Assembly: GCA_965223415.1 (NCBI GenBank)
Contig: OZ245002.1
Span: 1,088,001-1,152,000, forward strand
DNA from: Myxococcota bacterium
GTDB lineage: Bacteria; Myxococcota_A; UBA9160; UBA6930
Direction: 5' to 3'
DNA: 64,000 bases
Shown piece after piece: positions 38,183 through 56,489 of this stretch. How positions within the stretch are numbered: position 1 is the first letter of the stretch; every line of letters begins with the position of its first letter. Made by a program: the position numbers and the translations under genes. A model generated the notes under the pieces. It was not told the origin of the DNA. It saw only the letters and a list, made by a program, of their open reading frames with translations, and did not search any database.

Positions 38183-40009
38183 TCAGTTCACGTCGAGGAA
38201 CAGCGAGATGAACTCCCCGGCCCGCGAGACCTCGACGGGAGTCGTCGTCAGGCCCAGCAGGCTCGGAATCGGGAACGAACCGAACGAATCCGCCAGGGAC
38301 GGCAGCGCCGTGTCGAGCGTGAATCCCAGCACGCTGGCCAGCACCGTCTCGTTCGTGTTGATGCGGTTGTCGATGATGTCGATGTGGATGCTTCCCGGCG
38401 CCACGCTGCCGATCGTCACGGCCAGCTCCCCTGCCACGAAGGCGAAGTCGAGACCGACCTGGGCATCGACGACCACCTCGACCAGCGGGACGTTGGTGCT
38501 CACCGGCTTCATCTTGATCACAAGGTGCGGCACGTGCATGAGCGCCAGCTCGCCGGCGGGCCCGGGGGCCCCGGTCACGAAGGGCGCCGCCCCCGGCTCG
38601 AGAACCAGCTCGATCAGCTCCGCCGGATCGAAGGCCGCCAGCTCGGGCACGAAGACCGAGAGCAGCCCGGCGGTGAGGGTCGTGGGACCGGCGCCCAGGT
38701 CCAGCTCGGTGATCGCGCCGGCGAGCAGCCCGCTCTCCACCTCCGCCTTCAGCAGCTGGTTGAAGGCGGACGTCCCGATGCACAGTCCCAGGCCGTAGGG
38801 CAGGCCGCTCACCGGCGTTGTCGTGCCGAAGACCGGAAAGACCTCGTCGATGTGGTAGGAGGCCGCGAGGTCCGGTGCGCTCCCGACGGGCATCGACGCG
38901 GTGATGCGCGCATCGGTTCCGATGGTGAGGCCGTTCGGATCCTCGTCGAGGGCGAAGTGGGGAGCCTCGAGGTTCACGCCGATCTGGGTGCCGATCGTGC
39001 CGTCGAGATCGAGGCCCGAGGTCGCGGTCTCGATGGCGTCAGCGATCGGGCCGTCCGCCGGGCCGGCACCGTCGGGATCCGTGAGGAAGGCCTGGAAGCC
39101 CTGGGTCACGTCGTCCTGGAGGTCCCCGATGATCAGCTGGATGATGTCGCCGATGATCAGCACGTCGCAGATGCCGCTCGTGAAGGTCTGGTTGAAGCCG
39201 GAGAAGCTGACGCCGATCGAGGTCTGGTTGACGTCCACGTTGGAGGGATCGACCGGATCCGGCTCCACCTCGTAGGTGCCGGGGAGATCGGTCTGGTTCG
39301 CCGTGAGGCGCACGCCGCAGGTCGGCACCAGGCCGGAGCCGTTGATGTGGATGTTGATCTCGAGGTCGAAGATCGAGACGGTGCCGGTCATCGCGTCGGT
39401 GATGGGCACGATGTCGAGGGCGAAACCGGAGATCGAGGGCGCGGGGCTCGCGACGGTGGTGGTGGACGACCCGAGACACGCGCCGAAGAGTGGATCGACG
39501 ATCTTGCAGCCGCTGTCGAGGACGGAGCCGACCGGAACGAGGGTCGCCGGGTCGAGCACGAAGAGGCTCGCCATCACCGGCTCCATGGCGTCGAGGCCCA
39601 CATCGGTGATGCGCATGGCCATGGCTTCGAGGGAGAAGTCGCCGTCCAGCACGGAATCCGCAGCGAACACGGTGATCCGCTCCCGGTAGTGGCCTCCCGA
39701 GACGGCCGAGACGACGATCGGGTTGACGATCGCCACCGGGTCGAGGGTGACGCTCGTGGACCAGGTGCCGTCCGGGTTGACCGGTACCGACACGCCGTCC
39801 ACCGTCAGCGACGGACTCTTCGGGTTGGTGATGCGCCCGGAGACCGTGATCGAGCCGGCCGTCGTGAAGGTGCCGTTCGGCGGCGACTCCACGATGAGGT
39901 TGGAGGACGGCGCGCAGGTCATGCCGAGGCTCAAGATCGCCAACAGGCCGAGGGCCGCAGCGGGCGCGAGACGAAGCGAGCGGGGGTCACGGGCGGGCTG
40001 AGGGCGCAT
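38183..40009 (-). CDS. Lipoprotein with Ig-like domain and BPI/LBP (TULIP)-like region
   Basis: GMTC lipobox; ITVSGRI..LTVDG..DGTWS Ig-like; MRITDVGLDA and IGTSAFNQLL..GLL resemble BPI/LBP N- and C-barrel starts. Confidence 0.55.
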   Translation of the reverse strand: MRPQPARDPRSLRLAPAAALGLLAILSLGMTCAPSSNLIVESPPNGTFTTAGSITVSGRITNPKSPSLTVDGVSVPVNPDGTWSTSVTLDPVAIVNPIVVSAVSGGHYRERITVFAADSVLDGDFSLEAMAMRITDVGLDAMEPVMASLFVLDPATLVPVGSVLDSGCKIVDPLFGACLGSSTTTVASPAPSISGFALDIVPITDAMTGTVSIFDLEINIHINGSGLVPTCGVRLTANQTDLPGTYEVEPDPVDPSNVDVNQTSIGVSFSGFNQTFTSGICDVLIIGDIIQLIIGDLQDDVTQGFQAFLTDPDGAGPADGPIADAIETATSGLDLDGTIGTQIGVNLEAPHFALDEDPNGLTIGTDARITASMPVGSAPDLAASYHIDEVFPVFGTTTPVSGLPYGLGLCIGTSAFNQLLKAEVESGLLAGAITELDLGAGPTTLTAGLLSVFVPELAAFDPAELIELVLEPGAAPFVTGAPGPAGELALMHVPHLVIKMKPVSTNVPLVEVVVDAQVGLDFAFVAGELAVTIGSVAPGSIHIDIIDNRINTNETVLASVLGFTLDTALPSLADSFGSFPIPSLLGLTTTPVEVSRAGEFISLFLDVN

Positions 40010-40040: not shown

Positions 40041-40056
40041 AGCAAGCCCGGTGCCA
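40041..40056 (-). promoter_or_regulatory. sigma54 -24/-12 promoter
   Basis: TGGCAC-CGGGC-TTGCT, 31 nt upstream of ATG 40009. Confidence 0.75.
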
Positions 40057-42797: not shown

Positions 42798-44663
42798 TTA
42801 GCGGAGGGCGGTGCGGAGGCGGGAGAGGAGCTTGAGGAGGCCGTCGGCGCCGAGCTGGGCGGTGGCGAGCAGCGCTCGCGAGCGGCGGACGGCGCCTTCG
42901 AAATCGCCGTCCGCGCTCCTCGAGGCGAGCTGGAGATCGTGCAGCTCGCCCTGCACCAGGAAGCCCACCATCGGCAGGTGGCCCAGGCGCTCGCGCACCT
43001 TGTGCTCGGCCTGCTGGGCCGAGCGCAGGAGGGGTGCCGCGGCGCCGGCCCGGGCCCTCGCGAAGCGACCGAGCTTCTCGGCGCCGCGCTTCGCGTCGGC
43101 GCGCAGGGCCCGGGCCTCCGCCTCGAGTGCCCGGGCGGCGGCGAGCAGGACGCCCGGGTCCGAAGCGGTGCGTGCGCGCGCGGCCTCCGCCAGCCGCTCT
43201 TCGGTCGACAGCTCCGCGTGCGCCACCTCTTCGATCAGCGGGCCGAAAGCCCGGTGCTCGATACCTGGAATGCGCGCACCGCCCTCGGTGCAGTTGACGA
43301 GGCGCACGCCCTCCCGCGCCAGCAGCCCGCCGAGCGCCCGATACTCCTCGCGGAAGCTCGCGTAGGTGACGTCGGTCAGCACCCGGTCCCCGTTCCACCC
43401 CTCGACCCAGGTCGCACCCGGTGCCAGCTCGCGATCGGGCGTGTCCCGCTCGAAGAGCGCCGCCTTCTTCTTCAGGTCGGTAAAGTAGACGCTGCCGTCC
43501 GCTTCCTGCTCGACGCCGAGGTCCTCGTAGAGCGACCCCTCCGCATAACGTCGGCCGTCCGTGAAGGCCAGATCCTGGCCGATCAACATCACCCGGCCCG
43601 CGCCGAGGAAGGCCGCCAGGCCGACCGCCGCCACGGCGACGGTCCCCCCGGAGCGCAGCCAGGCCGTCTCGCCGAGGGCGGCGCCGAGCCAGACCGCGAA
43701 GGGGTTCGACGACTCGAAGCCGAGGAAGCGACGGCCCGGCGAGAGCTCGAAGAGCCGGGGATGAGCCTGAGGCACGAGCACGAGGTTCTGCGCGCCCAGG
43801 CTGGGAACGCGATCGAGCTGGTGACTCACGTCCTGGGTTTCGGTGACGACGACGAGGTCCGGCCGCACGCCGGCCCGCTCAAGCGCCGCGAGGCTCTGCC
43901 CGATGGCGATCACCAGCACCCGACTCCGGTAGCGGGCGACGAGCGGAAGCTGCTTCGGGAGCGAGGGGCCGGCCGCGCACACGACGGCGGGCGCGCCGGA
44001 GAAGGCGCCCTCGAGGGCCCCGATGCGCGACGCGCCCAGCAGGTGCGGCCCGTTCTCGATGCTGGTCAGCGCCCAGTGCCGAGACCAGGTCCGCAGGGTC
44101 GCGCACTGGACGTCCGCCGCCTCCTTCGTCCGGGCCACCCGGGCCACCGCGGAGCGCAGCGTCTCCGGCGCCACCCGCCCGAGCCCGGGATGGGGCAGGA
44201 CGTGCAGGGAGAGGCCCGGCGAATACCACTCGGTGAGGCGCTCACACAGCGCGTCCTCGTCGGTGACGACGGAGACGTGCTCGCCGCCGAGCGCCGCGAA
44301 GGGGCGCGCCGCGAACGCCGCCCGCAGGAGCCCCGTGTGGGGCTCGAAGACGATCAGCCGGCGGATGCCACGCCGCTGGAGCGCGTCCAGCTGATGACCG
44401 GTGCCCACACCGAGAGCCACCACCACGTCCGCGTCGTCGGGCACCCGGGCAGCGAGGCGCTCCCCGTCCGCGGCGGGATCGTAGGCCGAGGCGAGGAGCG
44501 TTCCGCGAAACGAGAGGGTCGTGGCGCCGCTCGGCCCCGCGACGGCCAGGACGTCCTCGTCGAAGGCACCCGCGATGCGCGAGGCCAGCTGGGGATCGGC
44601 GCGGCGCAGCCGCGAGAGATTGCGCTCGAGGTGGTCGCCGCTGGCGGGTGCAGGGGTCGGCAT
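42798..44663 (-). CDS. maf: Motility-associated factor (Maf, DUF115) flagellin glycosyltransferase
   Basis: LASAYDP, LGVGTGH, VVCAAGPSL, GVRPDLVV, GGTVA, LIGQDLAF, NCTEGGARIPG. Confidence 0.85.
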   Translation of the reverse strand: MPTPAPASGDHLERNLSRLRRADPQLASRIAGAFDEDVLAVAGPSGATTLSFRGTLLASAYDPAADGERLAARVPDDADVVVALGVGTGHQLDALQRRGIRRLIVFEPHTGLLRAAFAARPFAALGGEHVSVVTDEDALCERLTEWYSPGLSLHVLPHPGLGRVAPETLRSAVARVARTKEAADVQCATLRTWSRHWALTSIENGPHLLGASRIGALEGAFSGAPAVVCAAGPSLPKQLPLVARYRSRVLVIAIGQSLAALERAGVRPDLVVVTETQDVSHQLDRVPSLGAQNLVLVPQAHPRLFELSPGRRFLGFESSNPFAVWLGAALGETAWLRSGGTVAVAAVGLAAFLGAGRVMLIGQDLAFTDGRRYAEGSLYEDLGVEQEADGSVYFTDLKKKAALFERDTPDRELAPGATWVEGWNGDRVLTDVTYASFREEYRALGGLLAREGVRLVNCTEGGARIPGIEHRAFGPLIEEVAHAELSTEERLAEAARARTASDPGVLLAAARALEAEARALRADAKRGAEKLGRFARARAGAAAPLLRSAQQAEHKVRERLGHLPMVGFLVQGELHDLQLASRSADGDFEGAVRRSRALLATAQLGADGLLKLLSRLRTALR

Positions 44664-44680: not shown

Positions 44681-44696
44681 TGCAAATGCAGTGCCA
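44681..44696 (-). promoter_or_regulatory. sigma54 -24/-12 promoter of maf
   Basis: TGGCAC-TGCAT-TTGCA, consensus match. Confidence 0.75.
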
Positions 44697-44858: not shown

Positions 44859-45746
44859 ATGCGCCTTCACCACGGACCCCGGTTCATCGCCGAGGTCTCG
44901 AGCAACCACCAGCGCGATCCCGAGCGTTGCCTCGCATTTGTCGATCGCGCCGCAGAGATCGGCTGCGACGGCGTCAAGTTCCAGCTCTTTCGCGTGGACG
45001 AGCTGTTCGCGCCGGAGGTGATCGCCGCGAGTCGGCTCCACCGTGCCCGGGAGGACTGGGAGCTTCCGGAGGAGCTCCTCCCGGCGATCGCCGCGCGTTG
45101 CCGCGCCCGCGGGCTGCTCTTCGGCTGCACGCCCTTCTCGCCACGGGCGGCCCGCGTGCTCGCGCCTCATGTGGACTTCGTGAAGATCGCCTCCTACGAG
45201 CTGCTCTACGAGCCGCTCCTCGAAGCCTGTGCCGGACTGGACCGACCGCTCGTGCTCTCCACCGGCATGGCGCGCGCCGACGAGGTGAGCCACGCCCTGA
45301 AGCGCATCGACGCCGCCGGATGTCGCGATCTCACGCTCCTCCACTGCGTGTCGGGCTACCCCACTCCGCCGGAGCAGGCGAACCTGGCGGCGATCGAGAC
45401 CCTGCGACGGCTGTCGGAAGCGGTGCTCGGACGCACCTGCGAGATCGGCTGGTCGGACCACAGCGTGGCGCCGGGCGTCGTACAGCGCGCCGTGCACCGC
45501 TACGGCGCGAGCCTCGTGGAGTTCCACCTCGACTTGGACGGCGAGGGGGCGGAGTACGCAAGCGGCCACTGCTGGCTCCCGGCGGCGATCGCCGCCGTGA
45601 TTGGCGACGTGCGCGCCGCCTTCCGCGCCGACGGCCGGGGCCACAAGGAGCCGGCGCCGTGCGAGCTGGCCGATCGCGCCTGGCGAGCCGATCCGGCCGA
45701 CGGCTGGCGCCCCCTGCGCGGCGCCCGGGCGGAGGTCGGCCCGTGA
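44859..45746 (+). CDS. Nonulosonic acid synthase (NeuB/PseI/SpsE family), lacking the C-terminal SAF domain
   Basis: FIAEVSSNH, VKFQ, KIASYE, LSTGM, LLHCVSGYP, GWSDH, VEFH. Confidence 0.9.
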   Translation: MRLHHGPRFIAEVSSNHQRDPERCLAFVDRAAEIGCDGVKFQLFRVDELFAPEVIAASRLHRAREDWELPEELLPAIAARCRARGLLFGCTPFSPRAARVLAPHVDFVKIASYELLYEPLLEACAGLDRPLVLSTGMARADEVSHALKRIDAAGCRDLTLLHCVSGYPTPPEQANLAAIETLRRLSEAVLGRTCEIGWSDHSVAPGVVQRAVHRYGASLVEFHLDLDGEGAEYASGHCWLPAAIAAVIGDVRAAFRADGRGHKEPAPCELADRAWRADPADGWRPLRGARAEVGP

Positions 45747-46711
45747 AGCGGCTCGTGATCGCGACGGCGGGGGGGGCCGAGCTCGGGGTCGGTCACGTGA
45801 TGCGGGCCGCGAGCCTGGCACGGGAAGCGGTCTCCCACGGAATCGGCACGGTGATGCACGTCGCCGGCGAGGAATCGGTGCGGCGCGCGGCCGCACGGGA
45901 GATCCCGGAGGTTCCGATCGAGCCGTGGGATGGCGTGTCGCACGTGGCGGCGAACGCGAGGGGCCTCTTGATCGACGCGCCCCACCCGATCGCGCCGGTC
46001 GTCGACGCAGCCCGCGCCGCCGGTGTGCCGACCACAGTGCTCGACCGCCTCGACACGCTCGAGACGGCGAGCTGGACCGTCCTGCCCGTCCTCCACGCCG
46101 AGCCCCGCGCACACCCGCGCCTGCGCCACGGCGCGGACTGGTGCGTGCTCGAGCCCCGTCGCCTGGGGCTCCCCGTGCCGTCGTTCCCCGGTGAGCGAGA
46201 TCTCCTCCTCGTCGCGTTTGGCGGCGCCGACGCGGGCGGCTGGACGCGCCAGGTCGCCGAGGCCCTCCCCGCACCGCCGCCGTCCGGGCTCCGGCCGGTG
46301 TTCGCCGTCGGGCCGGCGGCGCCGCCGGAACGTGCCGACGAGCTGGCTCCCTACGGCGAGGTGCTGCGCGCGCCGAGTCGGCGCGAGCTCTTCGCCTGGA
46401 TGGGCCGCGCTCGCCTCGCGGTGTGCGGCTTCGGTGTGACCCTCTACGAGCTCGCCGCCCTGGGCACCCCGGCGCTGGTGTTCGCGCGAGACGACGCCGA
46501 TGCCACCGCAGCACTCCGCCTGTCCGAGCGGGGCATCGGTCGGCTGGTGGGTCCCGCGGGCGGCTTCGACGCGGACGCGTTCCGGGACGCACTGGTCGAC
46601 GCCTTGCACGACGACTGGCCGGAGCGCACCCACCGCCAGGGCCTCCAAGCCCTCGGCGACGGCGCCGGCGCCGGGCGCATCCTCGAGCTCACCCTGGGAG
46701 ATCGGCGATGA
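45743..46711 (+). CDS. PseG/SpsG-like nucleotide-sugar hydrolase (GT-B fold)
   Basis: GVGHVMR, VAFGGAD, GVTLYELAALGTP, GDGAGAGRI. Confidence 0.8.
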   Translation: MKRLVIATAGGAELGVGHVMRAASLAREAVSHGIGTVMHVAGEESVRRAAAREIPEVPIEPWDGVSHVAANARGLLIDAPHPIAPVVDAARAAGVPTTVLDRLDTLETASWTVLPVLHAEPRAHPRLRHGADWCVLEPRRLGLPVPSFPGERDLLLVAFGGADAGGWTRQVAEALPAPPPSGLRPVFAVGPAAPPERADELAPYGEVLRAPSRRELFAWMGRARLAVCGFGVTLYELAALGTPALVFARDDADATAALRLSERGIGRLVGPAGGFDADAFRDALVDALHDDWPERTHRQGLQALGDGAGAGRILELTLGDRR

Positions 46712-49125
46712 GGGCAGGCGCGATCGTGCAGGCGCGGATGAGCAGCCGCCGCCTGCCCGGGAAGGTGCTGCGCGATCTCGCGGGCGAGCCGTTGCTGGCC
46801 CGCGTGGTCGAGCGGGTGCGCCAGGCCCGGCGCCTCGCCTTCGTCGGCGTCGCGACGTCCGCGGAGGCGGAAGACGATGCGATCGCCGCCTTCTGTCGCG
46901 TCCAGGGCATCCCCTGCCACCGCGGGCCGCTCGGCGACGTGCTCGCCCGCACGGCGGAGGCCGCGCGGCGCTGGAAGCTCGACCCGGTCGTGCGCATCAC
47001 CGCCGATTGTCCCTTCGTCTGCCCGGAGCTGATCGATCGCCTCGTCGCCGAGCTCGTCGCCCGGGACGCCGATGCGATCCGGCTGGCAGGGCCGAGCCTG
47101 CACGAGGGCATCGATCCCTTCTCTCGACGGGCGATCTTGCACTGGCAGGCCCAGGCGCTGTCGCCGGAGGAGCGCGAGCACCTGGGGCTCCTCCCCCAGC
47201 GCCGCGGCGAGGGTCTGCGCCTGGCGACGCTTGCGCCCCGCGCGGAGGATCCGCCTCCGGGCCCCGTGCGGCTCTCGGTGGACGAGCCTCACCAGCTCGA
47301 TTTCGCCCGCGCCGTCTACGCCGCCCTGGGCGGGCATGCCTGCTTCACCACCCTGGAGCTGCTGGCCGAGCTCCGACGGAGCCGTGTGCCCACCGGCGCC
47401 GACGCCGTCGTCGACGCCCTCCGGGCGGCGGGCGTGCCGCGTCTGCACCTCTACCCGGGCGGCACCATCATGCCGATCCTGAACGCGTGGATCGCCCGCG
47501 GCGGCGCCTTCGTGGTGGCGCGTCACGAGCAGGGCGCCGGCTACGCCGCCCTCGCCGAGGCACGCCTGGACGGGGAGCCGCGCGTCGCGATGGTGACGAG
47601 TGGCCCCGGGGTGACGAACCTGATGACCGTGGTCGCCGACGCCTGGTATGACGCCACACCGCTGGTCGCGATCACCGGCCAGGTCGGCACGGGGGATCTC
47701 CGCAGCCGACCGGGAGTGCGCCAGCGCGGCTTCCAGGAAGCGCCGACGGCCGCCCTGTGCGCGCCGATCAGCAAGGCCTGCCTGCGCCCGATGACGCCGG
47801 ACGAAGTGCCGGCGGTGATGGACGAAGCCCTGGCCCTCGCGGTCGCGGACCGGCCGGGACCAGTGGTGATCGAGCTGCCGATGGACGTTCAGCGCGGCGC
47901 GCTCGAAGCTCCGGGAGGCACCGAAGAGAAGGGAACCGGGACGCCCTCGAGGCCGGTCGTGGGCCCACCGGCCGCTCCCGACGAGGCGGCGATCGCGCTG
48001 CTCGCCGAGTGGCTGCGGGAGGCGGAACGTCCGCTGGTCCTCGCCGGACAGGGAGTGCTGCAGAGCGGCGCCGTGGAGCCGCTCCGGCGCCTGGCCGAGC
48101 GCGCACGGATCCCGGTGGCGACCAGTCTGCTCGGACTGGGCGCGGTTCCCGGCGATCACCCCCTCTCCCTCGGCATGGTCGGACACACGGGCACGGGCTG
48201 GGCCAACCGCGCCCTCGCCGAGTGCGACCTCCTGCTCGTGCTCGGCGCGCGCCTCGACGTACGCCAGACCGGCACCCGAACCGAGGCGTTCGCGCCGCAC
48301 GCGCGGATCGCCCGGGTCGACCTCGACCCGGCGGAGCTCTCGGCGCCGCGGGTGCACACGGAGCTGCCGATCCGGGGCGACGCGGCGCTGGCCCTGGCAG
48401 CTCTCGAACGCGCCTGGAACCCGGAGTCCGAGCCGCCCGCCTGCCACGAGGCGTGGCTCGGCCGCCTGAAGGAGTGGCGCGCGCGGCTTCCCCTCGACGC
48501 CGCGCCGGTCGCGAGCGGCTGCCATCCCGCCGAGCTGCTGCGCGCCGTCGACCGGGCGACCGCCGGTGAGTCGCTCGTGGTCGTGACGGGCGTGGGCCAC
48601 CACCAGCAGTGGGCTGCCCGACACTTCACCTTCGACGCGCCGCGCCGCAGGCTCCTCACCTCGGGCGGCCACGGTGCCATGGGCTACGACCTGCCCTCCG
48701 CGGCGGGCGCGTGTCTGGCGTGTCCGGACGCCCGGGTGCTGTGCGTGGTGGGCGACGGCTCCCTGCAGATCAACGGACAGGAGCTCGGGACCCTGGCCGA
48801 GTACGGCCTGCCCGCCAAGGTCCTGGTCCTGGACAACCGGCGCCTGGCCATGGTCTCCCAGTTCCAGAAGCTCACCTGGGGACACGATCCGAGCACCGGC
48901 GAGCGCGCGCCGGTCGACTTCGCGGGGCTGGCGCGGAGCTACGGCGTGCCTGCGTTTCGTCTCGAGCGATGGGACGAGGCGGCACCGGCGACCCTGCGCG
49001 CGTTCCTGGATCGGGCGGGCCCGGCGCTGTTGTGGGCGAGCATCGACCCGAGCGCCGAGGTGTCGCCGATGCTGCTGGCCGGCCAGACCACCGACGACCT
49101 CTGGTACGGGGACGACCCGTCGTGA
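46708..49125 (+). CDS. SpsF-type cytidylyltransferase fused to an acetolactate-synthase-like ThDP enzyme
   Basis: IVQARMSSRRLPGKVL, RITADCP, RLSVD; from 47386 YPGG, RHEQGA, TSGPG, GFQE, GAMGYDLP, GDGS..DN. Confidence 0.85.
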   Translation: MRAGAIVQARMSSRRLPGKVLRDLAGEPLLARVVERVRQARRLAFVGVATSAEAEDDAIAAFCRVQGIPCHRGPLGDVLARTAEAARRWKLDPVVRITADCPFVCPELIDRLVAELVARDADAIRLAGPSLHEGIDPFSRRAILHWQAQALSPEEREHLGLLPQRRGEGLRLATLAPRAEDPPPGPVRLSVDEPHQLDFARAVYAALGGHACFTTLELLAELRRSRVPTGADAVVDALRAAGVPRLHLYPGGTIMPILNAWIARGGAFVVARHEQGAGYAALAEARLDGEPRVAMVTSGPGVTNLMTVVADAWYDATPLVAITGQVGTGDLRSRPGVRQRGFQEAPTAALCAPISKACLRPMTPDEVPAVMDEALALAVADRPGPVVIELPMDVQRGALEAPGGTEEKGTGTPSRPVVGPPAAPDEAAIALLAEWLREAERPLVLAGQGVLQSGAVEPLRRLAERARIPVATSLLGLGAVPGDHPLSLGMVGHTGTGWANRALAECDLLLVLGARLDVRQTGTRTEAFAPHARIARVDLDPAELSAPRVHTELPIRGDAALALAALERAWNPESEPPACHEAWLGRLKEWRARLPLDAAPVASGCHPAELLRAVDRATAGESLVVVTGVGHHQQWAARHFTFDAPRRRLLTSGGHGAMGYDLPSAAGACLACPDARVLCVVGDGSLQINGQELGTLAEYGLPAKVLVLDNRRLAMVSQFQKLTWGHDPSTGERAPVDFAGLARSYGVPAFRLERWDEAAPATLRAFLDRAGPALLWASIDPSAEVSPMLLAGQTTDDLWYGDDPS

Positions 49126-49877
49126 TCCCGAACCTGGACGGACGCCACGCCTTCGTCACCGGGGGAGGCCGCGGCATCGGCCGGGCGACCGCGCTGGCGC
49201 TCGCCGATGCGGGCGCGGCATTGACGATCACCTGGTGCAGCCGGCGCGACGAGGCGGAGCGCACACTCGCGGAGCTGGCCGCCCGCGGTGTCGCGGCCGG
49301 TGCCCAGCCCCTCAACGCAGCCCGCCCCGAGGAGGTTCGCTGCGCCTTCCGACGGGCGCAGGCCGAGCGGGGTCCGGTTCACGTGCTGGTCAACAACGCG
49401 GGGATGGTCCAGGAGAAGCCGTTCGAAGAGATCCGGGTGGCGGACTGGGACCGCATGCTCGAGGTGAACCTCCGCGGCCCGTTCCTGTGCGCGCGAGAGG
49501 CGCTTCCAGCCATGCGCGAACGGCGCTGGGGACGCATCGTGAACGTCAGCTCGATCGGCGGCCAGTGGGGCGGCATCCGGCAGGTGCACTATGCGGCAGC
49601 GAAGGCCGGCCTCATCAGCCTCACCCGCTCCCTCGCCCGCGTGGCCGCGGCCGACGGTGTCACGGCGAACGCCGTGGCCCCAGGCCTCATCGGTACGGAG
49701 ATGATCGCCGGAGAGCTCGCCAGCGGCGACGGCCGCGCCAAGGCCGCGGGCATCCCCATCGGCCGCATCGGAACGCCCGAGGAGGTGGGCGAGACGATCG
49801 CGTTCCTGGCTTCGGACGCGGCTTCGTACATCACGGGCCAGACGGTCAACGTCAACGGCGGGATGTACTTCACATGA
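49122..49877 (+). CDS. FabG-like short-chain dehydrogenase/reductase
   Basis: TGGGRGIG, NNAG, YAAAK, YITGQ. Confidence 0.92.
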   Translation: MIPNLDGRHAFVTGGGRGIGRATALALADAGAALTITWCSRRDEAERTLAELAARGVAAGAQPLNAARPEEVRCAFRRAQAERGPVHVLVNNAGMVQEKPFEEIRVADWDRMLEVNLRGPFLCAREALPAMRERRWGRIVNVSSIGGQWGGIRQVHYAAAKAGLISLTRSLARVAAADGVTANAVAPGLIGTEMIAGELASGDGRAKAAGIPIGRIGTPEEVGETIAFLASDAASYITGQTVNVNGGMYFT

Positions 49878-51097
49878 GCCTCCTGTGGGTGATCAGCGCC
49901 GGTCCGGAGGCGTGCCCGACCATCGCCCGTGCGAAGGAGCTCGGCCTGGAGGTGGTGGCCAGCGACGTGCGGCCGGAGGCCCCGGGCCTGGCCCTGGCGG
50001 ACCACGCAGTCGTGGCGAGCGTCTACGACCCGGAGGAGACCCTCGCCGCGGCACAGTCCTTCGCCGCGAGGGTTCGAGCGCCCGACGGCGTGCTATGCGT
50101 CGCCGCCGATGCGCCCCGGACGGCGGCGCGCCTCTGCGAGGCGTTCGACCTTCCCGGTGTGTCGGTACAGACCGCCCGACTGGCGTCGGACAAGCTCGCC
50201 ATGAAGGAGCGCCTGGCGGCGGACGGCGTGCCGGTGCCCTGGTTCCGCTCGGTCTCCGATGCCCGGGAGCTCGCGGAGCTCGCGGACAAGGAAGACCTTC
50301 CTCTGGTCGTCAAGCCCGTCGACAGCCGCGGCGCGCGCGGCGTGGTGCGTCTCACCGGCGCCGTCGACCCGGCCTGGGCCTTCGCGACCGCCCTCACCCA
50401 CTCCCCGAGCGGCCGCGTGATGGTCGAGCACTTCCTCGACGGGCCGCAGGTGAGCACCGAATCTCTCGTCCTCGGCGACGCGGTGGCCACGCCGGGCTTC
50501 GCCGACCGCAACTACGCTCTTCTCGATCGCTTCGCCCCCTTCGTCTTGGAGAACGGCGGGGAGCTGCCCTCGCTCCTGCCGGAGGACGTCCGGTCCGCCA
50601 CCTGCGATGCGGTGGCCCGGGCCACCCGGAGCCTCGGGCTCTCGGTCGGCGTGGCCAAAGGCGACGTCGTCGTGCACCGGGGCCGCCCGATGATCATCGA
50701 GCTCGCGGCGCGGTTGAGCGGCGGCTACCTGTGCTCCCACCATATTCCTCTCTCGACGGGCGTGGACTTCATCGGGGCGGCGATCCGACAGGCCGTCGGC
50801 CAGCGGGTCGACGCCTCGGAGCTCGCCCCGCGCCGGACGCGGGGCGTCGCCCAGCGCTTCGTCTTTCCGCGGCCGGGCCGCGTCGTCGCGGTGCACGGGG
50901 AGCGCGAGGTGGCTGCCCGCCGGGAGATCGCGCTGGTCGAGGTACGGGTGGCGCCGGGAGACCTGGTGGGGCCGGTCGAGCACCACCCGAGCCGCGCTGG
51001 GTTGGTCATCGCCCACGCCGACTCCCGGGAGGCCGCCGTGCGCGCCGCGGACGCCGCTGCCGACGCTCTCGTGATCGAGACGGTTCCCGCGCCGTGA
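49874..51097 (+). CDS. ATP-grasp ligase
   Basis: DKLAMKE, VVKPVDSRGARGV, VEHFLDG, IIELAARLSGG. Confidence 0.9.
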   Translation: MSLLWVISAGPEACPTIARAKELGLEVVASDVRPEAPGLALADHAVVASVYDPEETLAAAQSFAARVRAPDGVLCVAADAPRTAARLCEAFDLPGVSVQTARLASDKLAMKERLAADGVPVPWFRSVSDARELAELADKEDLPLVVKPVDSRGARGVVRLTGAVDPAWAFATALTHSPSGRVMVEHFLDGPQVSTESLVLGDAVATPGFADRNYALLDRFAPFVLENGGELPSLLPEDVRSATCDAVARATRSLGLSVGVAKGDVVVHRGRPMIIELAARLSGGYLCSHHIPLSTGVDFIGAAIRQAVGQRVDASELAPRRTRGVAQRFVFPRPGRVVAVHGEREVAARREIALVEVRVAPGDLVGPVEHHPSRAGLVIAHADSREAAVRAADAAADALVIETVPAP

Positions 51098-53052
51098 GCG
51101 AGCCGCTCCACGTCTACGCGATCTTCCACCTGAACCTCATGTTCTCGGCAATCGAGGAGCGCCAGCGGCCGCAGGTGGTGGAGCGCTGCTATTGGCCCCT
51201 CCTGTCCCTCGCGACCGACCTGGGCATTCCGCTCGGCCTCGAGGTCTCCGGCCTCACCCTGGAGGAGATCCGTCGCATCGATCCCCTGTGGCTGCGGCGG
51301 CTGCGGAAGCTCACCGAGGCCGGCACCTGCGAGCTGGTCGGCAGCGGCGACGCCCAGCTGATCGGTCCGCTTGTCCCGGAATCCGTCAATCGCTGGAACC
51401 TGCGCCTCGGCCGGGAGCGCGCCGAAGCGTTGCTAGGCGAGGCCCCGCGGCTCGCCTTCGTGAACGAGCAGGCCTTCTCCGCGGGGCTCGTGCCCCTCTA
51501 CCGGGAGGCGGGCTTCGAGGCGATCGTCATGGAGTGGAACAACGCGGCCCGGACGCACCCGGAGTGGCCCCGGGACTGGCGCTACCACCCGCAGCTCGCC
51601 GCGGGGCCCGGAGGCGAGACGATCCCCCTCGTATGGAACGACTCGATCGCCTTCCAGCGGCTCCAGCGGGTGGCCCACGGTGAGATCACCGGGGACGAGC
51701 TGGTCGAGTGGCTCGCGCCCCGGGCCGGAAGGGGCCGGGCGTTTCCCCTCTACGGCGGCGACGCCGAGATCTTCGACTTTCGCCCGAATCGCTATGCGGT
51801 CGAGCCCACCCTCGAAGCCGGCGAGTGGCAGCGCCTTCGCGATCTCTTCCTTCGCCTCCAGGAAGACGAGCGCTTCCGCTGGGTGGCGCCGAGCGCCACG
51901 CTGGCCCTCCCTGCCGGCGAGCACGGGGGGCAGGTGCTCCGACTCGACACGGCGGAGCAACCGTGCCCGGTGAAGAAGCAGCCGAAGTACCACCTGGCCC
52001 GGTGGGCGGTGAGCGGGCGGGACGATCTCGCCGTGAACACCGTATGTCGCCGCATCGCGGGGGAGTTGGAGCGCCAGCCCGAAGCCCGGGCGGAGGACTG
52101 GCAGGAGCTCTGCGCACTGTGGGGCAGCGACTACCGCACCCACATCACCGACGACCGCTGGCGCGGGTTCCGCGACCGCCTTTCCCGCTTCGAGCGCCGG
52201 GTCCGCGGCCCGGCCGCCCTGCCGAGCCCGAGCACCGCCTGCTGGCCCGTGGCGCTTCCGGATTCGCGCTGGGATCGCGAGGGTTCGCGGCTGCGCTTCG
52301 AGAGCGATCGCCTGCGCATCCACTTCAACATCCGCCGCGGCCTCGCGATCGAGGCCCTGTGGTGGAAGGACGTGTCGCCGGATCCGCTGGTCGGAACGCT
52401 GCGCCACGGCTTCTTCGAGGACGTGGCCTGGGCCAGCGATCTCTACACCGGCCACGCGGTCTTCCAGCCGCCGGGCCGGCACCAGATCACCGACCTCTCG
52501 CCCATCGAGCCGTTCCTGGAGAACCACGGCGACCGGCTGGCACGCCTGACGGGCACGCTCCCGACGGAGCTGGGCCCGATCGAGAAGCGCTGGCAGATCG
52601 ACCTCGAGCACGGCCGCATCGACCTGGCCCATCACTTCTTCTGGCCCGGGCCGGCGACGGGCTCCTTGCGCGTCGGTCACGTGACCCTGCTGCCTGGCGC
52701 GTTCGAGCGGAGCTCCCTCTTCTACCGGACCTGCAACGGCGGCGGGCCGGAGCGCTTCGCGCTGGGGAAGGGCTTCGATCAGGGCCGCGCGGTTTCGAGC
52801 CTGGTCTCGTCCAGCGGCGCCGTCGGGATGACCGAAGGCTGGCTCGAGCTGGGCGACGCGCGCACGAGCGTCCGGATCGACCTTGACCTGGCCCACGCCG
52901 CGTGCGTCGGCCTGCTGCGCTTCGAGCCCGTGGACGATCGCTTCTTCCTGCGCGCCACCCTCTCGGCCCGGGAGTGCGACGACACGGCCAGGCCCGTCGC
53001 CAACGACGGCCTGGTGTGCGCCTTCTCCCTCAGCGCGCGGAAACGTTGCTGA
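51094..53052 (+). CDS. GH57/NodB-like barrel protein (possible deacetylase)
   Basis: YAIFHLNL, CYWPLL, ELVGSG, NEQAFS, YGGDAEIF. Confidence 0.7.
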   Translation: MSEPLHVYAIFHLNLMFSAIEERQRPQVVERCYWPLLSLATDLGIPLGLEVSGLTLEEIRRIDPLWLRRLRKLTEAGTCELVGSGDAQLIGPLVPESVNRWNLRLGRERAEALLGEAPRLAFVNEQAFSAGLVPLYREAGFEAIVMEWNNAARTHPEWPRDWRYHPQLAAGPGGETIPLVWNDSIAFQRLQRVAHGEITGDELVEWLAPRAGRGRAFPLYGGDAEIFDFRPNRYAVEPTLEAGEWQRLRDLFLRLQEDERFRWVAPSATLALPAGEHGGQVLRLDTAEQPCPVKKQPKYHLARWAVSGRDDLAVNTVCRRIAGELERQPEARAEDWQELCALWGSDYRTHITDDRWRGFRDRLSRFERRVRGPAALPSPSTACWPVALPDSRWDREGSRLRFESDRLRIHFNIRRGLAIEALWWKDVSPDPLVGTLRHGFFEDVAWASDLYTGHAVFQPPGRHQITDLSPIEPFLENHGDRLARLTGTLPTELGPIEKRWQIDLEHGRIDLAHHFFWPGPATGSLRVGHVTLLPGAFERSSLFYRTCNGGGPERFALGKGFDQGRAVSSLVSSSGAVGMTEGWLELGDARTSVRIDLDLAHAACVGLLRFEPVDDRFFLRATLSARECDDTARPVANDGLVCAFSLSARKRC

Positions 53053-54262
53053 AGGCCGGCGTGCGCTCGTAGAAGGTCACTGTCGGGACGGAGCCGAGGC
53101 CGAGACGGCGCAGATTGGCGAGCATCTCCGTCTGGAAGTCGTAGCTGGAGACGACGATCGCGTCGGGACGCAGGGCGGCCAGGGCCTCCGGGGCGACGAC
53201 GGGCAGGCCGAGGACGCGGCTTCCCTGCTTGGCCGGGTTGCCGTCGGCCAACGCGACGATCCGGGCCTTCCGCAGGTCGGTGGCGTCGAGCAGGCACTCC
53301 GTGTGGTAGCCGGCCCCGTACAGGGCGACCCGGTGACCCTCGGCGAGCCAGCGGGGCAGCGCCTCGTCGACGCGCGCGCGGAGGCGCTCCAGGAAGACAC
53401 GGCGCTCGCGGGTGTAGCGACCCACGACGTCCCGGATCGCCGCGACCTCGTCGGGTGCCGCCGGAACCGGGGCGCCCGGGCGCTCGCCCCGGCGTGCCCA
53501 CGAGCGGAAGGCCGGGAACGGGAAGTCCTGGTCGCAGGTCTCCGGCTCGAGGCCGCAGGCCCGCAGCAGGGCAGCCAGGGTCACGGGGCTGAAGTTGAAG
53601 AGGTGGTCGAAGGTGAAGAAGTCGACGGCGCTCTCGAGGCGGGGGCGCAGCACGTTGGGCACCTCGATGAAGAGCGCGCCGCCGGGAGCGAGGAGCTCGC
53701 GACAGCGCAGGAGGGTGGCGCGGGGATCGGCGAGGTGCTCGAGAACGTGGGAGAGCGCGATCAGGTCGAAGCGCTCCCCGGCCAGCGGCGCGTCCTCGAA
53801 GGCGCCGGCTTCGATCGGGACGCCCCAGCGCTCGCGCCCGAGGCGGGCGGCGCTCCGGGAGGGCTCGACGCCGCGCACCCGGGCGCCCCGGTCCCGGAGC
53901 AGCTTCAGCAGGAAGCCCTCGTAGCAGCCGATCTCGAGGACGCGCCAACCCACGAGCGGGCCCGCGGCGCGCTCGATCCAAGCGGCCTGGTCGCGCCGGC
54001 TCCCCTCACCGGGGATGCGCGGGCTGCCGTCCTCGGCGACGAAGGCGTCGCGCTCCTGGGCGGCGTAGAAGCTCGCGAGCAGCGCCGGCTCCGGCTGGGG
54101 ATCCGTGGAGACCAGGCCGCAGTGCGTGCACAGCACGGTGCGGATGTCGAAGGGCACCTCGCACCCGCCGGTGAGGATCCGGAAGCCCTCCTGGACCCGG
54201 ACCTCCTCGCTCTCCCGCGCGCCACAAGCAGGACAGGGCCGGCCGGCCTCAGCCATGTGCAT
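53030..54262 (-). CDS. Class I SAM methyltransferase with Zn-ribbon and C-methyltransferase-like C-terminus
   Basis: CPAC..CTHC, VLEIGCYEG, HVLEH, IEVPN, ALYGAG, DGNPAKQG. Confidence 0.88.
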   Translation of the reverse strand: MHMAEAGRPCPACGARESEEVRVQEGFRILTGGCEVPFDIRTVLCTHCGLVSTDPQPEPALLASFYAAQERDAFVAEDGSPRIPGEGSRRDQAAWIERAAGPLVGWRVLEIGCYEGFLLKLLRDRGARVRGVEPSRSAARLGRERWGVPIEAGAFEDAPLAGERFDLIALSHVLEHLADPRATLLRCRELLAPGGALFIEVPNVLRPRLESAVDFFTFDHLFNFSPVTLAALLRACGLEPETCDQDFPFPAFRSWARRGERPGAPVPAAPDEVAAIRDVVGRYTRERRVFLERLRARVDEALPRWLAEGHRVALYGAGYHTECLLDATDLRKARIVALADGNPAKQGSRVLGLPVVAPEALAALRPDAIVVSSYDFQTEMLANLRRLGLGSVPTVTFYERTPAFSNVSAR

Positions 54263-54333: not shown

Positions 54334-55521
54334 ATGCACCCGCATCAGGAGGTTCGTATCCAGCATCCGGTGGGAGCGCTGTCGCCCACCGGCGTCCTCG
54401 ACGTGGGGCTGCGTTGCCCCCATTCCTGCGTGTTCTGCTACTACAGCCACTTCGACGGCCACGCGGAGCCCTTCCACGCCCTTCGGACCCTGCCCTTCCG
54501 CCCCCTGCCGGAGTGCACGGAGCTCGCGGACGACTTCCGGCAGTGGGGGCTCACCCACTGCGACGTGACCGGCGGCGAGCCGAGCCTGCATCCGCACATC
54601 CTGGAGCTGATCCACCACGTGGAGCACGTGGCGGACCTGCGCGCCCGGCTCATCACCCTGGCCCAGTTCACCATGCGTCCCCACAAGCCGAGCGGCCGCG
54701 AGCGTCTGGTCGACGGGCTGCTCGACGCGGGGCTCACGGACTTCCTGTTCTCCTTCCATGCGGCGAGCGAGGGGCTCTTCAAGCAGCTCACGAAGGGCTC
54801 GCTCGCCCAGGTGAAGGCGACCATGGAGTATCTCGACGCCTGCGCGTTCTCGTACACCGCGAACACGGTCGTGCAGCAGTACAACGCCCACGAGCTGCCG
54901 GCGATCGCGCGCTATCTCTCGAGGCGGAACCTGCGCTTCCACAACTTCATCGTGATGAAGCTCGAGTGGGGATGGCGCAACGGGCCGGACCACGGCGTCG
55001 AGCACAAGGCGCGCTACGACGAGATCGCGCCGTCCCTGCGCGACGCCGTGCACATCCTGGAGGATGCGGGCGTGGGCGTGAACGTGCGCTACGCCCCCTA
55101 CTGCGCGCTGCCGGGGCTCGAGAAGAACCTGGTCGGCTACAAGCAGGTCCAGCTCGACCCCTACGAGTGGCGCAACGGCACCCGCGGCGCGAAGACCGAG
55201 GGCACGCCCTACGGCGGCAAGCCCTTCCTCTTCTACGAGAGACTCGAGGACTACCTGGCGAAGCATCCGGGGGACGTGGCGACCCGCGACGAGTACAACA
55301 TGAGCCAGGGTCCTCCCTGCGAGGGCTGCGCCCTTCGCGAGATCTGCGACGGGGTCGATCGGGACTACGTGGCGCGCCACGGTTGGGCCGAGCTCCACCC
55401 CTACGATGGCGAGACGGTCCAGGACCTCACGCACTTCCGGGTGACGAACCCCCGCCCCTTCGAGCTGCTGCAGCGGCCGGGCTGGCCCGGGCCGCGGGAG
55501 AAGGAGGAGGCGGGGTCGTGA
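54334..55521 (+). CDS. Radical SAM protein with C-terminal Cys cluster
   Basis: CPHSCVFC, TGGEP, PYC, CEGCALREICDG. Confidence 0.9.
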   Translation: MHPHQEVRIQHPVGALSPTGVLDVGLRCPHSCVFCYYSHFDGHAEPFHALRTLPFRPLPECTELADDFRQWGLTHCDVTGGEPSLHPHILELIHHVEHVADLRARLITLAQFTMRPHKPSGRERLVDGLLDAGLTDFLFSFHAASEGLFKQLTKGSLAQVKATMEYLDACAFSYTANTVVQQYNAHELPAIARYLSRRNLRFHNFIVMKLEWGWRNGPDHGVEHKARYDEIAPSLRDAVHILEDAGVGVNVRYAPYCALPGLEKNLVGYKQVQLDPYEWRNGTRGAKTEGTPYGGKPFLFYERLEDYLAKHPGDVATRDEYNMSQGPPCEGCALREICDGVDRDYVARHGWAELHPYDGETVQDLTHFRVTNPRPFELLQRPGWPGPREKEEAGS

Positions 55522-56489
55522 GGCTCTCGGTGGTCGTTCCCACCTTCGAGCGGCACTCGAAGCTCGAAGCCTGCGTCGCGAGCCTGGCGGCCCAGGGCGC
55601 CGACGCCGTCGGCGAGGTGGTGATCGCGGACGACGGCTCCGCGGACGACACCCGCGCCTGGCTCGAGGCGGCGCCCCGCCGCGATTGGCCGTTCGCCCTG
55701 CGCGTCCTGCGGCTGGACCACCGGGGACCCGCCGCGGCACGCAATGCCGGCGTGCGCGCGGCCCGCTGCGAGCTGGTGGCCTTCACGGGCGACGATTGCG
55801 TGCTCGCCCCGGGCTGGGCCGAGGCGCACCTGGGCGCCCACGGGGGGAGCCGTGGGGGCTCGGTGCTGGGACACACCACCTGGCTTCCCTCGCTCCGCGT
55901 CACGCCCTTCATGCACTACCAGGAGAACGGCGGCAGCCAATTCGCGTACGGGCGAATCGCCGATCCGGCGGATGCGGGCTGGCGGTACTACTACACGACG
56001 AACGTCTCCTCGCCGAGAGGGCTTCTGCTGGAGCATCCCTTCGACGAGCGCTTTCCGGCAGCGCGCTACGAGGACATGGAGCTCGGTTGGCGCCTCGAGC
56101 AGCAGGGACACCGCGTGGTGTATCGGCCGGAGGCGCTCGCCTGGCACGACCACCCGATCGGCTTCGAGGCCTTTCGCGGGCGCTGCCCCGAGTACGGCGA
56201 GTACGCGGCCCTCTTCCACCGGCTACACCCGCAGGAGCCGGCCCTGGCGCAGGCGCTGGGCATTCGCGACGCGGAGGCCTGCGACCGGGTGCTCGGGGCG
56301 GCCGTCGACGCGGCGGAGCGGGTCGTGGCGGAGCTGGAGGAGGCGGTGGCCAGTGCCGGAGCACCGCCGCCTTTCGGCCTCCGCGGCGCCACCGGGCTGC
56401 TCCACGACGCCTACCGGCTGCTCATCCATCTCGGGCTGGTCGGCGGGATCCGCAAGGCGCTGTCGCTACCGGCGCCGGAGCGGGTCTGA
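55518..56489 (+). CDS. Glycosyltransferase family 2
   Basis: SVVVPT, DDGS, GPAAARNAG, GDD, FDERF..YEDMELGWRL. Confidence 0.9.
   Translation: MRLSVVVPTFERHSKLEACVASLAAQGADAVGEVVIADDGSADDTRAWLEAAPRRDWPFALRVLRLDHRGPAAARNAGVRAARCELVAFTGDDCVLAPGWAEAHLGAHGGSRGGSVLGHTTWLPSLRVTPFMHYQENGGSQFAYGRIADPADAGWRYYYTTNVSSPRGLLLEHPFDERFPAARYEDMELGWRLEQQGHRVVYRPEALAWHDHPIGFEAFRGRCPEYGEYAALFHRLHPQEPALAQALGIRDAEACDRVLGAAVDAAERVVAELEEAVASAGAPPPFGLRGATGLLHDAYRLLIHLGLVGGIRKALSLPAPERV

Follow-up and report, generated by a model that had tools for sequence, protein, structure and literature searches.

A probable pseudaminic acid tailoring cassette of the sfm type, with an interchangeable enzyme slot, in a Myxococcota genome

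The operon sfmABCDE (SO_3261-SO_3265) of Shewanella oneidensis MR-1, which modifies flagellin and has Maf-2 (SO_3259) encoded upstream, is the closest described counterpart of an operon of six genes, g1 to g6, in a Myxococcota genome. These genes lie in a stretch of 64,000 nucleotides (the window, C1:1088001-1152000) of a single 5.83 Mb contig. In the published account of the Shewanella system (Bubendorfer et al. 2013, PMC3765264), SfmA is a 290-aa protein that contains a NeuB domain and is 31% identical to PseI, the synthase of pseudaminic acid (Pse). SfmB is a 581-aa IlvB-like thiamine diphosphate (ThDP) enzyme, SfmC a 255-aa 3-oxoacyl reductase, SfmD a 395-aa S-adenosylmethionine (SAM) methyltransferase, and SfmE a 412-aa ATP-grasp protein. 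Deletions of sfmA to sfmD left the flagellin unmodified and abolished motility. The glycan core described there is an unbranched mono-N-acetyl Pse-like residue (C11H18N2O6, 274 Da) and the labile moiety is C9H16O7 (236 Da), C10H18O7 or C11H20O7, with O-methyl groups. PseB and PseC are present according to that account, which gives no clear PseH, PseG, PseI or PseF. A 2023 preprint (bioRxiv 10.1101/2023.12.03.569772) still calls the 538/524-Da derivative atypical, its chemistry being unsolved, and describes an oversized cytidylyltransferase (SO_3269) in the cluster and two Mafs that act on one flagellin.

The gene set in the window matches this description. A SAF-less NeuB protein of about 290 aa, an IlvB-like ThDP enzyme, a FabG-like short-chain dehydrogenase/reductase (SDR), an ATP-grasp protein of about 410 aa and an adjacent Maf are common to both, as matched by published sizes and domains. 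For the SAM methyltransferase encoded inside the Shewanella operon, the window has a candidate counterpart of 408 aa, adjacent to the operon on the opposite strand. Both organisms have two Mafs, a short flagellin, PseB and PseC, and no PseH. In the window the cytidylyltransferase is fused to the ThDP enzyme, and PseG-like and GH57-like genes form part of the operon; the window organism differs further from Shewanella in that the operon is distant from the flagellar genes and coexists with a complete canonical Pse island. Because its gene set matches the published sfm description, the window holds a kind of system that is known genetically and unsolved biochemically. The novelty that the initial annotation had suggested for it is not supported, an equivalent gene set having been published in 2013. 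Beyond the Shewanella work, no publication was found that describes this gene set or that links GH57 to Pse, and none of the best 120 named matches of g1 or of g6 is from Shewanella. Neither these matches nor those of the N-terminal domain of g3 connect the cassette with an organism whose glycan is known.

A third-position GC frame plot and a start-codon scan define six co-directional genes at 44859-53052 on the forward strand, divergent from the maf gene and with a 4-nt start/stop overlap (GTGA or ATGA) at all five junctions; the span and the overlapping genes of the initial annotation are confirmed. Raw lists of open reading frames (ORFs) are full of spurious frames because the window has a G+C content of about 72%. 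Domains were assigned by Pfam and NCBIfam profile searches, with bit scores compared to the model cutoffs (Table 1). The operon is probably an sfm-type system for the tailoring of Pse, an accessory second branch of flagellin glycosylation in which a larger, sugar-like hydroxy-acid would replace one acetyl group. In outline this supports the initial annotation, which had proposed a nonulosonic-acid tailoring operon beside Maf.

Table 1. Coordinates within the window of the operon and of the features adjoining it
Feature	Position	Strand	Basis
Maf-type (DUF115) putative flagellin nonulosonic-acid glycosyltransferase, the genome's second copy	42798-44663	-	MptE-like 6.2e-31 and Maf_flag10_N; NCBIfam PseD domain model 9e-19
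Sigma-54-type -24/-12 motif TGGCAC-N5-TTGCA	44681-44696	-	Consensus match; ends 17 nt before the Maf start codon
g1: SAF-less NeuB-family nonulosonate synthase, SfmA-like	44859-45746	+	NeuB domain PF03102 alone, 1.3e-51; 295 aa
g2: PseG/SpsG-like nucleotide-sugar hydrolase candidate	45743-46711	+	TIGR03590 7e-11, 42 bits against a cutoff of 153; no Pfam match
g3, whole gene: cytidylyltransferase fused to a complete AHAS-like (acetohydroxyacid synthase-like) ThDP enzyme	46708-49125	+	
g3, N-terminal domain: SpsF-like cytidylyltransferase	46708-47382	+	CTP_transf_3 aa 5-122, 9e-26; KdsB-like NCBIfam matches
g3, C-terminal part: AHAS-derived ThDP carboligase, SfmB-like	47383-49125	+	TPP_enzyme_N/M/C aa 229-775
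g4: FabG-like SDR ketoreductase, SfmC-like	49122-49877	+	adh_short_C2 1.7e-62
g5: predicted L-amino-acid-ligase-type (LAL-type) ATP-grasp amide ligase, SfmE-like	49874-51097	+	LAL_C2 4e-17 and ATP-grasp_3
g6: predicted GH57-like enzyme, 652 aa	51094-53052	+	Glyco_hydro_57 PF03065 2e-12, aa 24-148 only
SAM methyltransferase, 408 aa, SfmD-like candidate	53030-54256	-	Methyltransf_23 7.5e-22 and Methyltransf_14 C-terminal domain PF08484

The canonical Pse island lies at C1:2.10-2.11 Mb, beside flagellar genes and flagellin. It encodes PseB (446 bits, above cutoff), PseC, the other Maf (C1:2106975-2108885, 43-47% identical to the window Maf), a B12-radical SAM protein, a PseF-like cytidylyltransferase, a true PseI (C1:2111132-2112133, 442 bits, above cutoff), a WbqC-like protein and a PseG-like protein. 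The window proteins are diverged paralogues of those of the island. No PseH was found genome-wide (TIGR03585, best score 26 bits against a cutoff of 93). Within the island region C1:2102001-2116000 (L033), the WbqC-like gene (PF08889, 1.7e-61) occupies the position that PseH would have, and the radical SAM gene encodes a B12-binding protein. Since the genome has no PseH and a WbqC-like gene in its place, the canonical branch may also make a non-standard Pse.

In the proposed scheme, each chemical step of which is read from the predicted enzymes, PseB and PseC of the canonical island would supply UDP-4-amino-4,6-dideoxy-beta-L-AltNAc (UDP, uridine diphosphate). Because the genome lacks PseH, the free 4-amine would not be acetylated; the ATP-grasp enzyme g5 would take the place of PseH and amidate it with a polyhydroxy carboxylic acid, the group that would be at N7 of the product. 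The acid would come from the ThDP carboligase of g3, which would add a pyruvate-derived two-carbon unit to an aldehyde, and from the SDR g4, which would reduce the resulting ketone, with optional O-methyl groups added by the neighbouring methyltransferase. The PseG-like g2 would remove UDP from the bulky intermediate, the SAF-less NeuB g1 would condense the sugar with phosphoenolpyruvate (PEP), and the cytidylyltransferase domain of g3 would make the cytidine monophosphate (CMP) sugar. These three would be dedicated paralogues of PseG, PseI and PseF that have become specialised for the bulky intermediate, and the adjacent Maf would transfer the product to Ser/Thr of flagellin. The formation of an amide by an ATP-grasp enzyme without acyl carrier protein, a feature of the initial annotation, is plausible; the best PDB match of g5 is an L-amino acid ligase (3VOT, 4e-21).

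Further evidence comes from 98 related loci, 18 from species genomes and 80 from metagenomes, onto which a panel of cassette proteins was mapped by tblastn. Neighbours were counted in two subsets: 49 loci whose sequence extends 5 kb or more upstream of the GH57-like gene, and 24 that have flanks of 8 kb or more on each side. The SDR, ATP-grasp and GH57-like genes are constant across the loci, and the neighbouring enzyme switches. In 29 of the 49 loci a g4 homologue is no more than 5 kb from the GH57-like gene; a g5-type ATP-grasp gene is that close in 38, and directly upstream in 19. The variable slot was surveyed in the same 49 loci among genes within 6 kb, with confirmation by Pfam and NCBIfam. 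It is filled by an AHAS-like enzyme in 13 loci, a split transketolase in 11, an enzyme like 1-deoxy-D-xylulose-5-phosphate synthase (DXS-like) in three, both of the latter two types in one, a transaldolase in two, the glucuronate isomerase UxaC in three and a KduI/IolB-like protein in one; none was recognised in 15. One of those 15 (L049) has a ThDP enzyme like sulfopyruvate/phosphonopyruvate decarboxylase together with an iron-containing alcohol dehydrogenase. The occupants are almost mutually exclusive between loci. The interchange of the ThDP enzyme with transketolase, DXS-like enzymes, transaldolase and uronate isomerases suggests that its acceptor is an aldehyde, rather than that it condenses pyruvate with itself.

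Genes of Pse synthesis accompany related cassettes. PseB is present in 10, PseC in 11 and SAF-less NeuB in 13 of the 24 loci with long flanks, and the neighbouring PseB and PseC exceed their equivalog cutoffs where scanned. Scans for GNAT/PseH proteins were negative for 82 proteins taken from six loci (E<=1e-5), for 46 from seven loci and for a set of 62 (E<=1e-6). The last set comprised 59 hand-picked proteins, mostly in-cluster gap ORFs from 23 of 33 loci (at least 12 kb, G+C at most 0.58), and three ORFs of the canonical island. Among 225 genomes of the same class, which as related genomes are not independent, the GH57-like gene is present in 42 and a g5-like ATP-grasp gene in 40; 37 have both, eight only one and 180 neither. 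Within the genus the cassette occurs as a whole or is missing altogether: g5 and g6 are neighbours in three other genomes, and two, with completeness of 90% and 97%, lack both. What has been observed directly is which genes the cassette contains, how they are conserved, their modular arrangement and their agreement with the sfm genes in the literature. The cassette is of a widespread type.

The NeuB-like protein is a case of divergence from the canonical enzymes. g1 scores 145 bits with the NeuB equivalog model (cutoff 400) and 138 bits with that of PseI (cutoff 340), has no SAF domain and is not a PseI equivalog by Pfam and NCBIfam; it is 38% identical to the true PseI of the genome. Among its best 120 matches, members of its family are 283-335 aa long, share 58-74% identity and occur across phyla. 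It could be argued that g1 makes the acyl chain, by joining PEP to a neutral aldose to give a 2-keto-3-deoxy acid that the SDR would reduce and the ATP-grasp enzyme attach, while the canonical PseI makes the Pse core. The genome does have its separate PseI, one related locus (L049) has both a full-length and a SAF-less NeuB, C9H16O7 fits a 3,9-dideoxynononoyl group by formula calculation, and the acyl group of Treponema denticola is a 3-deoxy-hexonic acid. However, only 4 of the 30 related loci with the NeuB family have two such genes, S. oneidensis is reported to be without any other PseI, and the ThDP enzyme would go unexplained. In addition, one locus (L017:3425-5341) encodes a 638-aa fusion of a SAF-less NeuB with a PseG-like protein, as would be expected for the consecutive PseG and PseI steps. 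A role of g1 in acyl-chain synthesis is thus considered improbable, and the preferred reading of g1 is as the synthase that acts on the amidated sugar.

A hidden Markov model of the g2 family finds members in 41 of the 98 loci; many of them immediately precede the GH57-like gene or are joined to a cytidylyltransferase. The cytidylyltransferase domain of g3 has 34% identity to the PseF-like gene of the canonical island. Its fusion to a ThDP enzyme recurs in 10 other protein clusters among the best 120 matches to this domain, and fusions to PseG-like, class-III aminotransferase or methyltransferase partners are far more frequent. Because most of its fusion partners are not ThDP enzymes, the fusion marks membership of the pathway only. 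Examples among SpsF-like fusion proteins (P0162-P0270) are those with a class-III aminotransferase, of about 680 aa, and those with a PseG-like part, of about 600 aa. A pair of aminotransferase and aldo/keto reductase genes also recurs, in 12 and 14 of the 98 loci respectively.

The ThDP part of g3 scores 455 bits with the AHAS equivalog model (TIGR00118), below the cutoff of 538. The housekeeping IlvB scores 739 bits and is encoded at C1:4.46 Mb, with the only IlvN of the genome immediately downstream, so the initial view that the ThDP enzyme is not the housekeeping IlvB holds. The AHAS-like enzymes linked to cassettes group in a single clade (19 rows, support 100/99) that is sister to the IlvB of the genome, and the forms fused to a cytidylyltransferase are a subclade within it. 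g3 retains the catalytic Glu of AHAS and both Arg of the RFDDR motif, and the Trp of the QWED motif is replaced by Phe. The roles of both motifs in g3 are presumed, including that of the RFDDR Arg residues as binders of the acceptor carboxylate.

Retention of these residues is in keeping with the chemistry first suggested for the operon, in which two pyruvates would give acetolactate through the ThDP enzyme, the SDR would reduce it to 2,3-dihydroxy-2-methylbutanoate, g6 would de-N-acetylate the sugar, and the ATP-grasp enzyme would join the two. The group appended in S. oneidensis is C9H16O7 rather than C5, with 236 Da against the 116 Da of the C5 acyl group, and in 21 of the 49 loci the slot holds enzymes that cannot make acetolactate (transketolase, DXS-like, transaldolase, UxaC and KduI-like). 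The C5 reduced-acetolactate acyl group is not supported on these grounds, and the scheme as a whole, with the deacetylation discussed below, is very unlikely.

A second possibility is that the ThDP enzyme places a pyruvate-derived acetyl group on the 4-keto sugar made by PseB, in the manner of YerE, and that the SDR reduces it as YerF does, to give a C-branched nonulosonic acid. AHAS-like enzymes that branch keto sugars are reported (YerE family; PMC9306805, PMC12247030). The methyltransferase of the window has a C-terminal domain of the sugar C-methyltransferase type (PF08484), and the fusion of the cytidylyltransferase to the ThDP enzyme would reflect action on a nucleotide sugar. Against this, the cytidylyltransferase is joined far more often to aminotransferases, PseG-like proteins and methyltransferases, the S. 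oneidensis core has the composition of an unbranched mono-N-acetyl Pse, and PseC needs the same 4-keto group. Elsewhere transketolase, transaldolase or uronate isomerases fill the slot, and the ATP-grasp enzyme would be left without a carboxylate substrate. Branching of the sugar therefore seems hardly probable, and addition to an aldehyde on the way to an acyl group is preferred.

g6, the hallmark of the cassette, belongs to a large and uniform family. A total of 1094 representative proteins match at E<1e-3, and 494 clusters (50% identity) match at E<1e-30, nearly all of about 650 aa; all named members among the best 120 matches are annotated as GH57 or hypothetical only. g6 itself scores 47.4 bits with PF03065 (gathering cutoff 21.2), the match covering aa 24-148 only, and relatives reach profile positions 35-282. 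E125, D223 and E225 are present in every one of the 50 aligned members. In a profile alignment (E=5e-7) they correspond to E123, D214 and E216 of the 4-alpha-glucanotransferase of Thermococcus litoralis (1K1W), in which we take E123 to be the nucleophile and D214 the acid/base. The two proteins are similar in length (659 aa in 1K1W), in their N-terminal barrel and in these catalytic Glu/Asp positions, although the single-sequence similarity is marginal (E=0.02). Unlike that of 1K1W, the genomic context of the g6 family is Pse cassettes and never glycogen or starch metabolism, which argues against activity on alpha-glucans. A basic motif, K294-K295-Q296-x-K298-Y299-x3-R303-W304, is invariant in the family (KKQxKYNxxRW) and suggests an anionic substrate.

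The label "GH57/NodB-like" given to g6 initially is sound in its first half and not in its second: no NodB/CE4 (Polysacc_deac_1) match was found in g6 at E<=0.01, nor in 10 longer family members at E<=0.001. GH57 and the NodB deacetylases presumably share a Pfam clan, and it is at that level only that the label holds. The common clan is nevertheless a point for the deacetylase step of the acetolactate scheme. One family representative, P0061 (957 aa), is fused at its C-terminus to a domain of the aminoglycoside 3-N-acetyltransferase type (PF02522, aa 720-936, 4e-37), which puts the family near an amine-acylation step; this fits a role of g6 close to N-acylation and does not discriminate between the models. 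On the other side, the nucleophile and acid/base positions of GH57 are invariant in the family, and one related locus (L091) has its own PIG-L de-N-acetylase beside the GH57-like gene. The step is also unnecessary because PseC already supplies a free amine, in a genome without PseH, and it has been dropped from the scheme. Substitution of g6 for PseG was considered as well and rejected, as the PseG-like family accompanies the GH57-like gene in 41 of 98 loci, often directly upstream.

A tentative proposal, which may well not hold, is that g6 is a nucleotide-sugar (UDP-hexuronate) hydrolase that frees a hexuronic acid, and that the variable enzyme then works on its aldehyde end. It is prompted by the slot occupants, all of which act on aldehydes, with the characterised relatives of UxaC and KduI/IolB acting only on free uronic acids, and by the UDP-glucose dehydrogenase, UxaC and KduI-like genes that adjoin GH57-like genes. 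Of the 47 loci that span 12 kb or more, 8 carry a UDP-glucose dehydrogenase gene, which comes directly after the GH57-like gene in L066 and L068 and abuts it in L025. The UxaC of L066 scores 532 bits (glucuronate isomerase cutoff 387) and is followed by an SDR whose best match is a D-mannonate oxidoreductase, at the usual place of the ThDP enzyme and SDR; in L069 and L072 a KduI-like gene precedes the GH57-like gene by 108-131 nt. The two ends of a hexuronate differ, one being an aldehyde and the other a carboxylate. UxaC or KduI/IolB-like enzymes could isomerise the aldehyde to a ketone. AHAS- or DXS-like enzymes could extend it by an acetyl C2 unit; with transketolase the addition would be a glycolyl C2 unit, and with transaldolase a C3 unit. 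The SDR would reduce the resulting ketone, methyltransferases would cap hydroxyls, and the ATP-grasp enzyme would amidate the Pse precursor through the carboxylate.

For the AHAS-type cassettes of the window and of S. oneidensis, this proposal predicts an 8-deoxy-octonoyl group (C8H14O7, 222.07 Da). By formula calculation, one, two or three O-methyl groups on C8H14O7 give C9H16O7, C10H18O7 and C11H20O7, the 236/250/264 Da series of S. oneidensis, a fit that is not unique since a 3,9-dideoxynononoyl group fits equally. Isomerase-type cassettes would give hexonoyl or 3-deoxyhexonoyl groups like that of T. denticola. In two loci (L094:2357-4344 and L101:3499-5564) the split transketolase is immediately preceded by genes for LicD, NUDIX and IspD-like cytidylyltransferase proteins. 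This set resembles genes for CDP-alditols (CDP, cytidine diphosphate) and phosphotransfer, and is unexplained by the uronate proposal. If the proposal is true, one logic would yield a series of pseudaminic acids with C6, C8 and C9 polyhydroxy-acyl groups, the GH57-like family of about 500 sequence clusters would have a function, and two published glycan structures would be explained.

The likely acceptor, judging by the genes concerned, is flagellin. The only flagellin gene of the genome starts at 2140266 and encodes a protein of 274 aa, of the short type with a Ser/Thr-rich centre, like Shewanella flagellins. Exact TGGCAC-N5-TTGCA motifs number 22 in the 5.83 Mb genome, against three expected from base composition; by consensus match, one is 157 nt upstream of the flagellin gene and another precedes the window Maf. 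Flagellin genes are near the GH57-like gene in eight related loci, Maf in three and a tetratricopeptide repeat protein, which may be FlmG-like, in 10. A different acceptor, for instance a capsule, an O-antigen or some other protein of the cell surface, is nevertheless conceivable. A full Pse-plus-Maf island is already beside flagellin, 1 Mb away. Some related cassettes (L037 and L098) have a polysaccharide-type neighbourhood that includes genes for flippases, for GT1/GT4 glycosyltransferases and for capsule. A candidate protein is also at hand, for a second exact sigma-54-type motif in the window (40041-40056, reverse strand) is about 98 nt upstream of the gene for a 586-aa protein (38183-39943, reverse strand), 5 kb from the operon. 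The N-terminus of this protein resembles that of a lipoprotein; the protein contains a Glucodextran_B-like Ig domain, matches no NCBIfam model and, from the motif, may be co-regulated with the window Maf. On the other hand, the adjacent Maf belongs, as far as is known, to the flagellin glycosyltransferases, S. oneidensis uses two Mafs on its one flagellin, flagellin adjoins the cassette in the eight loci mentioned, and the flagellin of this genome is of the Shewanella-like type. An acceptor of another kind is judged improbable.

Several points weigh against an sfm-type accessory branch of flagellin glycosylation. PseB, PseC and flagellin are absent from the window, and the operon is 1 Mb from the flagellar genes. 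The polysaccharide-type settings of L037 and L098 imply that the acceptor need not be flagellin, and the canonical island has its own PseG-like protein, PseI, PseF-like protein, Maf and WbqC-like protein, so the two loci may make separate products. The match to sfm rests on the published sizes and domains of the Sfm proteins. The amidation scheme by itself leaves the role of g6 unexplained, and no enzyme of the cassette has been characterised, every step being deduced from sequence. Finally, deletion of sfmE, the ATP-grasp gene, is described as giving a mass shift only slightly smaller than those of the sfmA to sfmD deletions, which is hard to interpret (PMC3765264).

Around the operon, the methyltransferase, which is convergent with g6, is probably a member of the cassette; homologues of it, at only 22-31% identity, adjoin the GH57-like gene in many related loci and are directly upstream in L020, L024 and L026. 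The next genes, for a radical SAM protein (54334-55521) and a GT2 glycosyltransferase (55518-56489), were rejected as members, since tblastn (E<1e-6) found no homologue of either across the 98 loci. So were the thiolase-like and DUF1214-like genes downstream of Maf, for which the genome has numerous paralogues and the first 18 loci have no homologue. A scan of the divergent region between Maf and g1 for sigma-70 promoters and terminators found none, and no GlfM-like small gene is beside either Maf, by the gene calls made here only. Further from the operon, two adjacent ORFs at 29835-30362 (forward strand) each match half of the UGSC family (PF24696) and are one gene. It has an in-frame TGA at codon 95 (30117-30119) in the motif ALAD-U-GSC-TTC and, read through, encodes a probable selenoprotein of 175 aa. 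The window also contains four GGDEF or GGDEF/EAL genes (21486-23051, 23375-24442, 34909-36807 and 60712-62832) and, at its left edge, genes for an IS21-family IstB helper ATPase (10-771, forward strand) and a Ser/Thr protein kinase-domain protein (1250-2167, reverse strand).

Bacteria diversify the sialic-acid-like sugars on their flagella, S-layers and capsules with unusual N-acyl groups, which influence recognition by the immune system, sensitivity to phages and the assembly of filaments. The genes and enzymes for the installation of hydroxy-acyl groups have yet to be identified. The window provides a clean and complete example of such a cassette on a single contig. Comparison across loci turns an opaque gene set into a hypothesis that is ordered enzyme by enzyme. 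It draws on the constancy of the SDR, ATP-grasp and GH57-like genes, the near mutual exclusion of the aldehyde-processing enzymes, the uronate genes and the lack of PseH.

The canonical CMP-Pse pathway of Campylobacter and Helicobacter (PseB, C, H, G, I and F) and the legionaminic acid pathway of Bacillus subtilis (SpsM/C/D/G/E/F; PMC7439481) have the same logic of hydrolase, PEP synthase and cytidylyltransferase, and g2, g1 and the N-terminal domain of g3 correspond to PseG-SpsG, PseI-SpsE and PseF-SpsF. The window operon differs from these pathways in having no N-acetyltransferase, a SAF-less synthase and four extra enzymes (ThDP, SDR, ATP-grasp and GH57-like). Use of a carboxylate by the ATP-grasp enzyme, as proposed here, would parallel Cj1438 of the Campylobacter jejuni capsule, whose C-terminal ATP-grasp domain is described as activating the C6 carboxylate of glucuronate to form an amide (PMC11800379). 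Cj1438 is of the TupA-like subfamily and g5 of the LAL type, and the roles of the partners differ: with Cj1438 the sugar acid is in a polymer and the amine is small, whereas for g5 the amine would be the amino sugar. Natural nonulosonic acids with hydroxyacyl groups are also on record. Tannerella forsythia has Pse5Am7Gra, an N-hydroxyacyl Pse, and as of 2017 the genes for N-glyceroyl Pse in T. forsythia and Vibrio vulnificus were stated to be unidentified (PMC5378307). In T. denticola, the group reported on the nonulosonic acid is 2-methoxy-4,5,6-trihydroxyhexanoyl, of the 3-deoxy-hexonic acid type (PMC13439194).

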